Shown here one piece after another: positions 39,101 through 45,100 of a DNA stretch of 53,198 bases (its first letter is position 1; each line of letters starts with the position of its first letter). A program made the position numbers. Source of the stretch: Vulcanimicrobiales bacterium (GTDB lineage Bacteria; Vulcanimicrobiota; Vulcanimicrobiia; Vulcanimicrobiales; Vulcanimicrobiaceae). The DNA is taken from contig JBBQQR010000014.1 in the NCBI GenBank assembly GCA_038215615.1, positions 1-53,198 on the forward strand, given 5' to 3'.

Positions 39101-42100
39101 CAGTTATACGGTCTTCAGTTATCTGCGCACGCAAGGCCGTTTCGAAGTCTCGCCGATCAATCCGACCATCGCGGCGATCGACGGCGTGCCCGCCTATCCA
39201 TCGCTAGCCGCGTACGCGGCCGAACGGGGCGCCCCCGACATCGTCGACGTCTTCCGGCGGCCGAGCGAAGTGCTCGAAGTCGCGCGCGAAGCGATCGCCG
39301 CCGGCGCGAAGTCGATCTGGTTCCAATACGGCGTTATCAATCAGGAGGCAATCGATCTCGCCAGCGGCGCTGGACTCGATGTGGTCGTCGATCGCTGCAT
39401 CAAAGTCGAATCGGCGCGCTTCAACGGCGGTCTGGCAACCAGCGGGTTAAACAGCGGGCTGATCTCGAGCCGGCGCCGTGATCGCTGATTATCGCGCCGA
39501 GGCAAACGCACTCGACGCGGAAATCCAGGACATCATCGAGCGGTGGTCCACACCACCTGGGTATCGCGGCCGCTGGGAGCACTCGCACCCGGACTTTAAG
39601 TTTGACTTCAACGATCTCGGATTAAGGATTTTCGAGCACCAACTACGCTTTAACGGCCCATATGCACGCTTTTGCCAAAGTCTCGGGATAACAAGCTCCG
39701 CTCAGCTGCGTGATTGGCAAGATATTCCGCCAGTGCCGGCGGCTGCGTTCAAAGAGGCGTCGCTCGCCACGTTCGCTCCGGCCTTGGCCGCGTTGAAATT
39801 CGAGACGAGCGGAACCACAATGGGCTCCGGCGGCATCCATTACATGGAAAACTCGCGTCTCTACGACGCTTCGCTTCGGGCCGGCTTTGCCTACGGGTTG
39901 CTGCGGGATGGCCCCCAACCGTTGCGCTACTGCATGCTGCTTCCGAACCTCGAACAGAAGCCGCGATCGTCACTCTCTTACATGATGGATCGCGTGGCCA
40001 AGGCCTTCGGCGACGGAAACCACTCCTGGTACGTCGACGGCGGGGAGCTCGCGGCGTCGCGTTTTATCCACGACGTGAGGGAAGCGCGCAAGAACAACGT
40101 TGCGATCTGCGTCGCCGGGACCGCCTTCGCTTTCGTGAGCATGCTGGATGAGCTGGCGCGGGAAGCGATCGCGCTGCCCCTTCCATCAGGATCGAGGATC
40201 ATGGAGACGGGCGGGTTCAAGGGCCGCACGCGCGTCGTCGAGCGCCCAGAACTCTACACTGCGCTGGCGGACGTCTTCAGTCTGCCGTCACACCACATTA
40301 TCGGCGAGTACGGCATGACGGAGTTGACGACGCAATATTACGACAATTCCTTCGATGAAACGCGGCACAAGAGTGCGCCGCCATGGCTTGCGTCCTATGC
40401 GGTGGATGAGACCGGCAAACAACAGCCGCCCGGAATCGTGGGCGCACTGGTGCACGTGGACCTCGCTAACCGTTCTTCTTGCGCCGCCATTCTGACCGAA
40501 GATCTCGGTGCCGTCCTTAAAGACGGCAGCCTCGTACTGATCGGGCGCGAACGCGGTGCCGAACTGCGCGGCTGCTCGCTCGACGCGGAATCGCTGCGCG
40601 CCGCGGTGTCGTGACCGCGCTCTCGAAGGTTCGGGCAGCCGAAATCGCCGGCGCGATTTCCGATGCAGCCGAGCGTTGGCGCGATGCGGATTTTCCCGTG
40701 CGCGTGCGCGCCACCGGGCGCATCACCGAACGCACCGGATATTCGATTCCGGTCGTCGAGTACGCGCTGGACCGGCTCTTCTTCGCGATCGATCGCGCAT
40801 CACTCGAAGCGGTCATCGCGGGCGAACTCGGAGACGTTGAGATGCTCGACGGTTTTTGTTCCCGCGCAGGCCGGACCGCCGCTTGGGCGCGCCCGATCGG
40901 AAACGTATGCGTTATCTCTAGTCGCACGACGATCGGCGTCGCGCTGCCCGCCGTCCTGTTCGCGCTTTGCGCCAAGTGCGACGTGCTGGTCAAAGATCGG
41001 GAAGATTCACTGATCGCTTCTTTTTTAGAAACGTTACGGGAAGAACTTCCCAAATTCGAGGGTGCAGCACGCGCCGAAACGTGGAGTTCACAGGACGAGA
41101 ATGCGCCCGCTCTGCGTTCATTCGACACCGTCGTCGCGTTCGGGCAATCCGAAACGCTGACCGCAATTCGCAACGCACTCTCTCCAGAGGCACGTTTCAT
41201 CGGCTTCGGTTCGCGCGCGAGCGCGGGATACGTTTCCCGCGAGTCGCTCTGTGGGGTTGATGCGGCTGCGGAGGTTGCACGCGGCGCCGCGCGCGACATC
41301 GTGCTCTATGAAACCGAGGGCTGCCTGTCGCTGCACGTGCTCTTCGTCGAAGACGGCGCAGCGGTGAGCGCCGCCGCATTCTCGCGAACGCTCCAAGACG
41401 AAATCGCGCGCGCGAATGTCGAATTCCCGCGCGGCGAGCCGGCGCTGGGCCGTTTGGCGCAAGCCGCGCAGGCGCGCGCGCTCGGCGCGTTTCAAAGGGC
41501 TTCGGGTGAAAGCGCGCTCTTCGAACCGCCGCCATTCTTGCCGCGGCTGGCGCACGCAATTCCGGTCGGCGGCCCAGGAGACGCGCTGGAGTATCTGCGC
41601 CGTCACGGCGTTGCCCTCGAAGGGTTTGCGATAACGGACAACCGCCCCGATGTGATCGGCATGGCGGTCTCGGCAGGCGCCGTCCGGATAACCCGTTTCG
41701 GAGAGTTGCAAAACCCGCCGCTTGCCGGCGAACACGGCGGGCGCCCGCGAATTGCTGAGTTCGTCCGCTGGACCGACAAGACGTTCTAATGCCGCAGTCA
41801 CGCAACCGTTCCAACGATTTAGCGCACCTGCTGCGCAAATACGAATCGCGCAACGTCACGTACGTTGAGGGCCAGTTTCCGATCTTTTGGGAATCGGCAC
41901 ACGACACGACCGTCATCGACGCCGACGGCAACGAGTACTTGGATCTCACGGCCGCGTTCGGCGTGGCGAACTGTGGGCACGCAAATCCGAGCGTAACGGC
42001 AGCGCTGCAGCAGCAAGCCGCGCGGCTCTCGCACGCCATGGGCGACGTCTATCCCGCCGCGATAAAGACGAATCTTCTCGAAAAACTAGCGGCAATCGCG

Positions 42101-45100
42101 CCCGGAGATCTGACGAAATCGTTTCTCGGATCCAGCGGCTCGGATGCAATCGAAGCCGCCATGAAAACCGCCGCGCTGGCAACGGGCAAGCCGGCGTTCG
42201 CTGCATTTCGCGGCTCGTATCACGGACTGAGCATCGGAACGCTCGAAGTTGCGGGTATCAAGAAGTTTCGCGAGCCGTTCTTGGCGTGGCTTCCGGAACG
42301 AACGCTGCTGCTCGATTATCCGGGCAGCAACGCGGATCAAGCGCTTGAATATGCGCGGCGGGCGTTCTCGCGCCGGTACGATCTCGCGGCTGCGATCGTC
42401 GAGCCCATCCAGGGCCGCGGCGGTTGCATCTTGCCGCCGGCCGGCTATTTGGCCGAACTGCGCGAGATTTGCCGCGAGCGCGGAATGCTGCTCATCGTCG
42501 ACGAGATTTACACGGGGTTCGGCCGGACCGGAAGCATGTTCGCCTGCGAGCAAGAGTCTGTCGTGCCGGACATTCTTTGTTTGGGGAAAGCGCTGGGCAA
42601 CGGTTTTCCGATTTCGGCGGCGCTCGCATCGCCGGGCGTTATGGATGCGTGGCCGGCCTCCGAGGGCGAAGCGTTACACACGTCCACACATTTGGGGAAT
42701 CCGATGGGGTGCGCGGCCGCACTCGCGAGCATCGCGCAGCTCGAAGGTCGCGAGCTCCCAAAACGCGCAGCAATGCTCGGCAGTCTGCTCGAATCGAAAC
42801 TGAAACCGCTGCAGTCGTCGGGAAAAGCCGCCGGCGTACGCGGACGCGGCCTGATGTGGGGGATCGAACTGCGCGATGCAGCGCAGGCCCGCACTGCGGT
42901 TGAAAAAGCTCTGACGAAAGGTGTCATCATCTTGCAATCCGGTGCCGAAGGCAACGTTCTCTCGCTCACGCCGCCGCTCACAATCTCGCAAGCCGATCTC
43001 GAGCGCGGCGTCGATGTGGTAGAGTCGTGTATCGCGTAGGAATCGTCGGCGGAGGGTTCGGCGTTCGCGCCCACCTGCCGGCGTTTGCGGCTCATTCGCA
43101 ATTCGAAGTCGTGGCGATCGCCTCGCCGCACAGTGCGAAAGCAGTAGCCCAGGAACGCAAGATTCCCCACGCATTCGAAAGTTGCGAGGCAATGCTGACC
43201 GGATGCGAGCTCGACGTCGTGTCGATTGCGAGCCCGCCGTTTACGCATCATCACGACGTGCTGGCTTCGATCGCCGCCGGAAAGCACGTGATCTGCGAAA
43301 AACCGTTCGCACTCTCCGTCGCGCAAGCGCAAGAGATGCTCGCGGCCGCGGAAAAGGTAAAAGCCGCAACCGCGGTCATGCATGAATTCCGCTGGGTTCC
43401 TCAGCGCTTCGCCCTCAAAGAGCTCATTGCAAACGGCCACCTCTCGCCGCTGCGCGAAGTCGAGATCACGCACCTCGCGCGCATGCTGAGGCTCGCAAAT
43501 ACGCGCAAGAACTCCTGGTGGTTCGACCGCAGCAAGGGCGGCGGAATCGCCGGCGCTCTTCTTTCCCATATCATCGACAGTGCGACCTGGATGGCCGGGC
43601 GCTCGCCGGTACGCAGTACGGGCTACCTGCGTACGGCAAATCTGCGGCGCGAGGGCCCGGATGGGCCGTTCGCGATCTCGGTCGACGACGGCGCGTTCGG
43701 CCTCATCGATTACGGCGAAGGCTTAGTCGCGCGCGTGACCGTCGACGGAACGACCGCGGTCGACGCGCTGACCGTCGCAGCGCACGGCGAAGACCGCAGC
43801 GCGGTGGCCAGCGGCAGCGGGCTGCATTCGATGCGTCTGTTCAGTGTAGACGAGGAAGAGACGTCGGAGCTCGAGTGCAAGCCTTCTCCGAACGCGCGCT
43901 TCGGCGCGATCGACCCGCACGTTCCGCCGATCATGGATCTGCTCGACGAGTTCGTCAAAGAGATCGAAACGGGCGAGAGCCTCGTTCCGACGTTTGCCGA
44001 GGCGGTCGAAACGCAAAAGGTACTGAAGTCGGTGGGGTTCGGGAGCTGATTTACGTCCCTTTATCCGCTCCCAGATACTGAATCAACTTCAAGATGACGT
44101 CGTGCCGCGTCTGTAGTGTGTTCGGGTCGCCGTAAGCGAAATAGATCTCCGCGTGCGGAATGCGCTTGTAAAGCGCAAACGAGATGTTGGTGGCATTCAC
44201 GAACCGCGCCGGACCGAAAAACGGCGGACCCGAGCCGATGATCTTGCGCATCCCAATCGCGAACGATTCCCCCGGACCGATTTGGTAGCCGAAACTGATG
44301 CGTTCCAGCCACTGCTGCAGCAGCGCGCCGTTGTCGAGCATATCGCGCGTATTGTATGCCTGCAGCGTCAGCGTGCCACGCGGGCCTACCTTCAAAGCGG
44401 TCGAGCGGTTTATCGTATGGAGATAGCCGGCGGCGAATCGCCCCAAGTAGTATGAAAAGACCGTCGGCGTCGACGTGTTCCCGCCGTAAGAGATGTAGAT
44501 GCCGCCTTGATTTGCATAGCCGGCCGGGCCGCCGAGATTCAGCCAATTCGAGCCCGCATCCCACTCGATGTAAAACTTGTTGCGCGTCGAGATTGAAATA
44601 GCGGTCGAATCGTTCGTATAGTTCAGCACGCCCGCATGCGAATGAAAGCGGTTGAAATCCTGTGAGATGACTAAGCTCTGTACGAAACTCTTCGGGCCAT
44701 AGTCGAATTCGCGATACGCGGATACGGTCGGCCCGGCCACGTCGTTAAACTGCGTGAAGCTGTCAAAGGGACCGTATTCCGAACCGACGTCGTGATAGGC
44801 GGCGAAGAATCCCGATTTCGGCGTGTAGAGGTTTAGGCCGTACTCAGCATACCGGCCGTTGCCGGGATGGGGAACGAAGGTTCCATTTTCCTGGCCTTGC
44901 GTGGCATACACGCTAAAATTGTGCGCGTTCCCGATCTGCACTTGCCCGAACGAGGCGACGTCGTGGATGCCCGGCATGTCGACCGCTTCACGCTGGAAAA
45001 GAACGGCGGCCCGGCGGCTGGGCAGCCGCCAACTGGTCGACTGCGCCGTATCGGTCCTTTGCACGCCCAGCGCGGAGAACGCTCCGAAGTTAAAGGTTCC

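Follow-up and report, generated by a model that had tools for sequence, protein, structure and literature searches.

According to the available text of PMC11130926, preQ1 is formed de novo by a single route, i.e., through QueC and QueF. For the LuxE and LuxC families, the sole activity characterised in the available text of PMC9157457 is the reduction of fatty acids; in the LuxC of Photobacterium phosphoreum (LuxC-LuxE, 7XC6) the residues 460-488 build a long hydrophobic acyl cleft. The accessible part of 10.1101/2025.08.11.669332 describes TabE/TabA of tambjamine BE-18591, in which a LuxC-cluster thioester reductase is followed by a class III transaminase and an acyl carrier protein and a thioesterase are used within a secondary-metabolite cluster; in Streptomyces, dodecylamine is produced by a LuxC-cluster reductase and a class III transaminase.

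The window analysed here, i.e., the whole stretch of 53,198 nucleotides, belongs to the genome of a Vulcanimicrobiales bacterium (G000, 100% complete, 54 contigs) and harbors the genes for a LuxE-like adenylate-forming acyl-protein synthetase (39478-40614, 378 aa; PF04443, E 1e-17), a LuxC-like acyl-thioester reductase (40611-41789, 392 aa; PF05893, E 1e-30), a class III PLP aminotransferase (41789-43039, 416 aa; PF00202, E 2e-100) and a Gfo/Idh/MocA (GFO) oxidoreductase (43027-44049, 340 aa; PF01408, E 8e-27). The four ORFs are intact, overlapping and all located on the + strand, forming a single operon, in agreement with the initial annotation, which had placed a four-gene set at 39478..44049. 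The absence of luciferase and LuxD that it reported was also found, neither Bac_luciferase (PF00296) nor PF02273 having a match in G000. A distant luciferase-family gene is located elsewhere in the genome of two of the four relatives checked. The 5' part of the operon consists of a metY-type O-acetylhomoserine sulfhydrylase gene (37705-39012, + strand; over the TIGR01326 cut-off) and of a gene for a small CoA_binding_2 protein (39009-39488, + strand; PF13380, E 7e-37) that overlaps the luxE-like start. Both are outside the conserved module: metY is absent from several family-f1 loci and from every f2 and f3 locus, and the CoA_binding_2 gene is not conserved beyond the family.

The LuxE-like protein possesses the P-loop TSGTT (110-114), K248, the motif YGMTE (278-282), R357 and, near the C-terminus, Cys366 (RGCS); K248, R357 and C366 are invariant in all the 19 aligned members. 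The protein aligns to the PDB chain 7xc6_E, scores 56.4 bits against the NCBIfam LuxE equivalog, whose cut-off of 550 is not reached, and its predicted structure is nearest to the PaaK/ClxA aryl-acid ligases (TM about 0.6). In the alignment, the KNVWF stretch of LuxE matches an invariant polar SSL motif of the LuxE-like members. The LuxC-like protein carries its catalytic Cys238 in EGCLS (invariant in 18/18 aligned members) and scores 20.5 bits against the NCBIfam LuxC family, not reaching the cut-off of 750. The model of its residues 1-392 superposes on 7xc6_A 58-459 (Z 36.5, rmsd 2.6 over 379 residues), the identity in the structural alignment being 15%. Since the model ends at LuxC residue 459 and the cleft is built by residues 460-488, the protein stops before the C-terminal acyl-cleft segment of LuxC; in 17 of the 18 aligned members the chain ends 17-29 residues past GxLQxP, the remaining one being devoid of this motif. 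The pair shares with P. phosphoreum LuxC-LuxE (PMC9157457) the two folds and the catalytic logic described there (LuxE with its adenylation Lys/Arg and C-terminal carrier Cys, LuxC with a Cys in the active site), but differs from it in the equivalog scores, far under the cut-offs, in the lack of LuxAB and LuxD, in the missing 460-488 segment and in being coupled or fused to an aminotransferase. The likeness to TabE/TabA is at the family level: the activator is here a LuxE-like protein and there is no carrier, and the distribution is a housekeeping one.

The aminotransferase contains AMGDVYP, YHGL, EPIQGRGG (R210), K267 and GEALHTST and falls in a distinct subfamily of its own within class III, in a FastTree phylogeny whose deep support is weak. 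The subfamily motifs are H[AG]MGDVHP, YHGL, EPIQGRGG and GEAxHTST, the Arg of EPIQGRGG being invariant in 43/43 sequences. The nearest solved structure is a putrescine aminotransferase (E 3e-71), and the fold and the PLP lysine are common to the omega-aminotransferases PatA, GabT, ArgD and LysJ; however, the protein has its own subfamily motifs and, among the best 25 of 70 families, is below the cut-off of all the curated NCBIfam equivalogs (PatA, GabT, ArgD, BioA, LysJ, PigE). The GFO protein reaches no NCBIfam family cut-off either. The motif YHGL occurs where GabT-type enzymes carry YHGR, whose Arg presumably has a role tied to the distal carboxylate of the substrate. Matches of 342-393 bits in G266, G271, G252, G204 and G217 belong by motif to GabT-like or other subfamilies and were not counted.

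The luxE-like and luxC-like genes were each found in 121/121 genomes of the order, which has a cultured member (PMC9758169, PMC10582173), so that their core status, already proposed in the initial annotation, is borne out. The unlinking of luxE from luxC that had been noted there is real but not a general trait, as it traces to the single genus g4, where the two genes lie on separate contigs or at least about 160 kb apart (44/44 genomes) and where a flipped arrangement is identical at three luxE loci; in the 77 genomes outside g4 they are within about 5 kb in 75 and on separate contigs in 2, the coordinates of the two gene searches having been compared by hand in all 121 genomes. As for the four-gene set as a core unit, only the trio luxE-luxC-aminotransferase can be retained. 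The GFO gene directly follows the aminotransferase gene in 21/22 family-f1 loci, and in 3/3 f2 loci a GFO gene with 23-28% identity does so, but none was found next to the trio in the sister order (0/7 loci), and in trio-type loci of other phyla a match occurs in just 1/60, in a non-adjacent position. For this reason GFO is placed outside the conserved unit: the latter is the trio, and GFO is an order-level addition, co-transcribed here but probably dispensable for the pathway proposed below. The trio travels together, since the genomes with a lone aminotransferase gene hold luxE and luxC elsewhere (5/5) and fusions exist, both of aminotransferase and LuxE (P0132, P0158, P0172, P0186) and of LuxC and aminotransferase (P0122). 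Its gene order recurs in several phyla, and its distribution is mostly single-copy and housekeeping-like. No acyl-carrier, thioesterase or lipid gene was found as a conserved neighbour of the trio, and the window holds neither an acyl carrier protein nor an editing thioesterase; a FlK-type thioesterase gene lies 5' of luxE in 4/7 sister-order loci only. The locus scan gave at least 600 stretches, from which 80 loci were retained, and used a closer alignment of 13 aminotransferase sequences, the 43-sequence set being too diverse.

The genome G000 also holds queD, queE, tgt, queA (with no internal stop) and queG, and FolE2, i.e., the GTP cyclohydrolase I step, is present in 5/5 class genomes. 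QueD is over the TIGR03367 cut-off; for the QueE-like protein the QueE models are the best matches, yet it remains below their cut-offs. Neither queC nor queF was found in G000 by tblastn, by family search or by an unfiltered six-frame HMM/phmmer search. The gap in this genome is exactly the conversion of 7-carboxy-7-deazaguanine (CDG), an acid, into preQ1, an amine. The salvage transporter QPTR was found in 0/5 class genomes, and the scan of 19 sources for a preQ1 riboswitch returned just tRNAs. The only TGT of G000 is a usual one and retains the E. coli-type Cys145 and Val217, which we take to be the marks of a preQ1-type TGT. As described in PMC11130926, QueA and QueG require the aminomethyl group of preQ1. 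The same pattern extends to the class, with a QueE-like protein in 44/44 genomes, QueC over cut-off in 0/44 and QueF in 0/5 genomes searched; the other class of the phylum is devoid of the stand-alone LuxC type, and QueC is present in 4/5 of its genomes. In G000 neither queD nor queE shares a contig with the trio, and in Vulcanimicrobiales its neighbours are metY and leuCD rather than que genes.

A comparable exclusion was observed in the phylum of G203 (71 genomes), where the trio status rests on luxE and the aminotransferase: 56 genomes contain a LuxE-like gene, all of them with the aminotransferase subfamily (52 by search and 4 beside luxE, one of which is cut by a contig end). QueC over cut-off is present in 13/15 genomes without luxE vs. 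0/56 with it, and QueF (>100 bits) in 11/15 vs. 0/56. A QueE-like protein occurs in 69/71 (about 19 of these matches are weak, 69-105 bits), i.e., in the 56 genomes with luxE and aminotransferase and no QueC and in 13 with QueC and neither luxE nor aminotransferase; the two genomes without it are also devoid of luxE, of QueC over cut-off and of QueF. TGT is found in 71/71, with two TGT genes over cut-off in 30/56 trio genomes vs. 0/15 genomes without the trio. Among 36 genomes of other phyla, chosen by their aminotransferase, 33 have a QueE-like protein and one has QueC over cut-off. The genome G301 is an exception, the trio coexisting with QueC over cut-off (153.8 bits) and no QueF, and QueC-like genes below cut-off (61-92 bits) are carried by seven further trio or aminotransferase genomes and by two of this family; in G291 one of them is located beside queD in divergent orientation. 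A QueF-like match in the trio genome G272 (63.7 bits) was discarded, as its QPD motif is not preceded by the Cys to which the catalytic role in QueF is ascribed (PMC13740343). Three further QueF-like matches of 29-31 bits were counted as noise by their score.

The genomes in these counts are kin and not independent. On the TGT tree the state QueC/trio changes 5-6 times, and the five independent pairs are all concordant, even though the backbone is weak, just 1/5 pairs is on well-supported branches and five are too few for significance. The genome search initially missed two intact aminotransferase genes (G231, G252), so that single absences are not certain. In some cases the trio genes are clustered with que genes: queE immediately precedes the aminotransferase gene in G300, G202 and G302, luxE-luxC-queD lie on one strand in G202, in G302 queD follows the trio at 0.5 kb, and queE is 3 kb before it in G255. 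In total, queE or queD is embedded in 6/171 trio-type loci (4 genomes), a set that includes duplicates and many relatives, plus one fusion-type locus.

Sequence data support a type of reaction in which a carboxylate is converted via an aldehyde into a primary amine and no light is emitted. From the distribution, the clustering and the chemistry we infer that the trio carries CDG to preQ1, with a putative substrate, intermediate, product and set of protein contacts as follows. FolE2, QueD and QueE would yield CDG, whose carboxylate would be adenylated with ATP by the LuxE-like protein and loaded as a thioester on Cys366; the acyl group would then move to Cys238 of the LuxC-like protein, and its reduction with NAD(P)H would free 7-formyl-7-deazaguanine, which the PLP aminotransferase would transaminate to preQ1. 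TGT, QueA and QueG would complete queuosine, GFO being a bystander. There is a precedent for the adenylation of CDG (10.64898/2026.04.15.718813, in its accessible part), and 7-formyl-7-deazaguanine is described as a product released by QueF variants (PMC13740343). The proposed substrate (CDG), product (preQ1) and first activation (the CDG adenylate) would be the same as those of QueC and QueF, but the proteins are unrelated, and the trio would proceed via thioesters and an aldehyde and take its nitrogen from an amino donor by PLP chemistry, with no preQ0 nitrile. It is quite likely that the trio represents a QueC/QueF-independent route to preQ1. In the literature searched, i.e., main texts outside subscription journals, no description of this route was found.

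A first alternative is that the trio does act on CDG without converting the free base into free preQ1, for instance producing another 7-substituted deazaguanine (an amide or an alcohol) or acting on the base once it is in tRNA, in some lineages with a divergent QueC-like protein, a second TGT or GFO. It would account for the same exclusion and clustering, and it agrees with the two TGT genes in 30/56 trio genomes vs. 0/15 of the others in the G203 phylum, with the QueC-like genes that remain in some trio genomes and with QueC homologues reported to make CDG amides rather than preQ0 (10.64898/2026.04.15.718813, in its accessible part). However, G000 retains QueA and QueG, which need the aminomethyl group (PMC11130926), and one TGT of the usual type; moreover, the invariant partner is the aminotransferase, whereas GFO is confined to one order. 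This possibility is therefore regarded as unlikely.

It is more doubtful still that core metabolism uses the trio to convert some other small acid to an amine, in which case the QueC/QueF pattern would reflect lineage history and an unrecognised transporter would salvage preQ1. The independent contrasts are few, the trio of the order sits with metY and leuCD, away from the que genes, and new preQ1 transporters continue to emerge (PMC11130926, in its available text), but salvagers could drop queD and queE, and yet queE is kept in 44/44 class genomes; in addition, the two queE-less genomes of the G203 phylum have neither route, and the amino-acid gaps checked are filled by other genes.

The initial annotation had favoured a fatty acid to aldehyde to amine route. 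The acid-aldehyde-amine chemistry stands, on the basis of the conserved catalytic residues, of the gene order shared by several phyla and of the fusions, but the fatty substrate does not. Converting a fatty acid with a long chain into a fatty amine for a lipid or a small metabolite, as in TabE/TabA, would match the only LuxE/LuxC activity characterised in the available text of PMC9157457 and the Streptomyces dodecylamine pathway (10.1101/2025.08.11.669332). The replacement of YHGR by YHGL also fits a substrate with no distal carboxylate, a deazaguanine aldehyde being likewise devoid of it. Against this, carrier, thioesterase and lipid genes are not conserved neighbours, the LuxC cleft segment is missing, KNVWF is replaced by the invariant polar SSL, and both the mirroring of QueC/QueF absence by the trio and its links to queE and queD would be left unexplained, so that this reading is held to be very improbable. 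Other roles were rejected: a replacement in proline synthesis (proA is over cut-off in 4/61 order genomes and proC is absent from G000, but there is no gap to fill because ornithine cyclodeaminase is present in 5/5), in steps towards lysine or arginine (there are matches to dapA/B/D/F, lysA, asd and argB/C/F/G/H), GFO as a substitute for homoserine dehydrogenase (all five genomes compared have a GFO, and Hom, absent from G000 and G011, occurs in the other three), and a lipid cluster at Omnitrophota-like loci, where the neighbours are glutamate synthase, ferredoxin and thioredoxin reductase.

The conversion of CDG into preQ1 by the trio would be a widespread, second and nitrile-free route, made up of a nucleobase-tuned LuxE/LuxC carboxylate reductase and a dedicated aminotransferase, and it is likely to be the standard one throughout a class of soil bacteria, in the majority of the genomes sampled from a second phylum and in representatives of several others. 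Genome surveys sort organisms into queuosine makers and scavengers by the genes of the QueC/QueF route; if the trio replaces QueC and QueF, many bacteria scored as incomplete or scavenging would be producers. If true, many genes that carry the labels LuxE, LuxC and GABA aminotransferase would gain a function, and a carboxylate reductase acting on a heteroaromatic acid would become available. It may even be speculated that queuosine synthesis is an old housekeeping role of LuxE/LuxC, of which bioluminescence is one offshoot.

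The genome of G000 (2.21 Mb in 54 contigs, 100% complete) harbors, on the plus strand of the window (its contig C14), a run of six head-to-tail overlapping genes: metY (37705-39012), a CoA_binding_2 gene (39009-39488), a luxE-like gene (39478-40614), a luxC-like gene (40611-41789), a class III aminotransferase gene (AT; 41789-43039), and a Gfo/Idh/MocA oxidoreductase gene (GFO; 43027-44049), the last four with clear Pfam matches. Against the NCBIfam equivalogs, the LuxE-like protein scores 56 bits (cut-off 550) and the LuxC-like protein 20.5 bits (cut-off 750); a genome-wide search of G000 matched neither the luciferase nor the LuxD family, and the absence reported in the initial annotation is thus borne out for this genome. 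Sources label its close homologues Candidatus Rubrimentiphilum and Baltobacteraceae, which places the lineage in Vulcanimicrobiota (Eremiobacterota). Divergently from metY, at about 60 bases, lie leuD/leuC-like genes of the short aconitase type (35852-37641). Downstream of GFO, the minus strand of a region variable among relatives (44051-51025) carries genes for a DUF5916 protein, a repeat protein, and a BlaR1/M56 peptidase with a BlaI-like repressor, and a subtilisin-like gene. Genome-wide, proA, proB, proC, homoserine dehydrogenase, thrB, thrC, and ilvI are all unmatched in G000, despite which metY and leuB/C/D-like genes are retained; ornithine cyclodeaminase is probably its source of proline.

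The description of the lux genes as core to the order holds, since luxE-like and luxC-like genes are each present in 121/121 genomes (one of them, G099, unpublished and contributing one row), mostly as a single match. The lack of luxE-luxC linkage noted earlier is real in one genus, g4, where the two genes are far apart in 44/44 genomes (coordinates compared by hand), but it is confined to it: elsewhere in the order they are apart in 2/77 genomes, both split between contigs. Forty loci were mapped with a self-trained gene caller, and on this map GFO follows AT in 21/22 loci of the family. A distant GFO homologue follows AT in 3/3 loci of a second family, and in the sister order luxE, luxC, and AT are adjacent in 7/7 loci, all without GFO; of the four-gene module first proposed, luxE-luxC-AT (hereinafter, the trio) is kept, but GFO is absent beside it in the sister order (0/7). 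In G120, AT and GFO lie in a single open frame of 770 codons (L055:9149-11461), which reflects either a genuine fusion or an error in the sequence.

The AT forms a subfamily of its own, whose best relatives include four fusions of AT to LuxE (two recognised by Pfam, the others by motif plus a C-terminal RGCS) and one LuxC-AT fusion, each of which, taken singly, might be an assembly artefact. A GTDB scan for AT retrieved at least 80 loci, 20 of which, assignable to this class from the title or from gene order and score, were set aside. The remaining 60 among the matches listed belong, by record title, to Gemmatimonadota, Myxococcota, Verrucomicrobiota, Armatimonadota, Omnitrophota, Elusimicrobia, and others, labels that are approximate, the titles of L112, L122, L140, L149, and L086 mismatching the gene content (e.g., Acidoferrum or Armatimonadota titles on loci with the gene arrangement and scores of this order). 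Among these listed matches, luxE is found within 8 kb of AT in 20/60 and luxC in 16/60, mostly as AT-luxE-luxC, counts affected by the many loci that end at contig ends; GFO occurs in 1/60, non-adjacent. In genomes with a solitary AT, luxE and luxC of the same subfamilies were found elsewhere in 5/5 tested, adjacent to each other in four. On gene order, fusions, and these 5/5 genomes, the functional unit is the trio.

In 3/60 other-phylum loci (among the matches listed), AT is directly preceded by a radical SAM gene that is QueE-like, QueE models being its top matches, slightly under cut-off. One genome (G202) has queE-AT at one site and luxE-luxC-queD at a second, another (G302) has queE-AT-luxE-luxC followed at 0.5 kb by a queD-like gene, and in G255 queE lies 3 kb upstream of the trio genes. 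As described in PMC11130926, the QueE product is an acid, 7-carboxy-7-deazaguanine (CDG), and the TGT substrate an amine, preQ1, with QueC and QueF normally between them. Since converting an acid through an aldehyde into an amine amounts to the net change from CDG to preQ1, the trio is a candidate for the QueC/QueF bridge, a prediction set down ahead of the distribution tests. Que genes near the trio are rare (6/171 trio loci, 4 genomes), and none is clustered with it in the loci examined from the order of G000; 8/8 genomes of the sister order have queE at a distance of 13-23 kb from luxC, probably as one inherited block. In contig C1 of G000, queD-queE are followed without a break by the gene for a futalosine hydrolase (scoring over the TIGR03664 cut-off) and one more gene (L180:2778-5219), similarly to G001.

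G000 possesses queD, queE, tgt, queA, queG, and all four GUN tRNAs; no queC or queF was found in it, even by an unfiltered search, which returned only PP-loop enzymes read as GuaA, MnmA, and ArgG. Across 44 genomes of the class, QueE-like proteins occur in 44/44 and QueC over cut-off in 0/44; FolE2 is present in 5/5 class genomes and QPTR in 0/5. On the opposing side, no preQ1 riboswitch was detected in 19 sources scanned. The phylum's other class, whose LuxC survey takes in one unpublished genome (G196, one row), has QueC in 4/5 genomes and either no LuxC or LuxC fusion proteins of roughly 885 residues and different type, which are a different module because QueC is retained in those genomes. 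Such LuxC-domain proteins (about 870-890 aa) are encoded at L079:8309-10993, L080:8162-10765, and L081:6885-9539; a separate LuxE-like gene adjoins in two, and in L081 the LuxC-domain gene is divergent from queE.

A second phylum, that of G203 (a Lujinxingiaceae record, presumably Myxococcota), was profiled in 71 genomes, the trio being scored by luxE and AT: luxE is present in 56, all 56 with AT. QueC over cut-off occurs in 13/15 genomes without luxE and 0/56 with it, and strong QueF in 11/15 and 0/56, respectively. TGT is found in 71/71 and QueE-like proteins in 69/71 (about 19 of these matches being weak), the two genomes without QueE also having neither route. From the counts of QueC (13/15) and trio (56/56), each of the 69 QueE-bearing genomes therefore carries one solution or the other, never both or neither. 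These genomes are related, not independent, and the naive Fisher p = 2e-12 ignores kinship and overstates the case; on a TGT tree, the trio/QueC state changes 5-6 times versus 9-13 when shuffled, and five independent pairs (one on well-supported branches) are all concordant, though not significant alone. Of 36 genomes from other phyla that carry AT (G263 shared with the 71, G295 unpublished), 33 have QueE-like proteins and one has QueC over cut-off; the QueF search outside the 71 covered 10 genomes. Against this pattern, the trio of G301 occurs together with a QueC of canonical score. In the G203 phylum, two TGT genes over cut-off occur in 30/56 trio genomes versus 0/15 without trio (L222-L322); one clade of second copies has GLGLGE in place of GLSVGE, and others have a changed Cys145.

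Sub-cut-off QueC-like genes occur in 9/80 genomes (44 of the class and 36 of other phyla). A divergent QueC-like family scores 61-92 bits (cut-off 150; L202-L208 and L212, from G285-G291, and L189:2194-2883). In most Omnitrophota-like members the ATP loop is SGGVES or SGGIES, the Cys motif is retained, and the surrounding genes belong to the phosphate regulon (phoU/pst); the G291 member has SGGLDS and adjoins queD. The trio genome G272, without QueC, encodes a QueF-like T-fold protein with no Cys before the QPD motif (L187:4650-5231).

LuxCE is described as converting an acid, via an adenylate and two thioesters, into an aldehyde (PMC9157457, PMC12041015). The LuxE-like protein retains the P-loop, K248, R357, and the C-terminal Cys366, the latter three being invariant in 19/19 aligned members and aligning with LuxE of the LuxC-LuxE structure 7XC6; Cys238 of the LuxC-like protein is invariant in 18/18. 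By analogy, the pair should perform the same conversion and AT should then aminate the aldehyde, in agreement with the acid-aldehyde-amine chemistry initially suggested. It does not follow that the substrate is a fatty acid, as had been assumed: the LuxC-like model (pLDDT 90) aligns over its full length to LuxC 58-459 (Z 36.5, rmsd 2.6, 379 residues) and thus lacks residues 460-488, which, according to PMC9157457, close the long hydrophobic cleft, and the conserved neighbours in the loci examined include no lipid gene. The nearest folds to the LuxE-like model (pLDDT 87) are aryl-acid ligases, which is weak evidence on the substrate, since a common fold proves no function. The trio would work like the lux reductase LuxCE with an added omega-transaminase, but falls outside the lux reductase by its scores under the cut-offs, its absent partners, and its missing cleft segment.

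The trio quite probably represents a QueC/QueF-independent route, in which CDG would be converted into CDG-AMP, then into acyl-Cys366 on the LuxE-like protein, acyl-Cys238 on the LuxC-like protein, 7-formyl-7-deazaguanine, and finally preQ1; the CDG adenylate (10.64898/2026.04.15.718813) and 7-formyl-7-deazaguanine (PMC13740343) are described as known species. It is unlikely that the trio makes a different deazaguanine product or that the reaction takes place at the tRNA level, and somewhat less likely still that it acts on another small acid, with salvage, which would render the QueC/QueF pattern coincidental. The production of a fatty amine, as by TabE/TabA (10.1101/2025.08.11.669332), is the least credible, given the cleft and the neighbourhoods.

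In the open literature, as far as its accessible text goes (subscription papers and supplements lying outside this scope), no paper was found that ties these families to queuosine. The trio is likely a case of established enzyme families serving a known pathway in a way not described before, and as a route to preQ1 it would be surprising, widespread, and directly testable.
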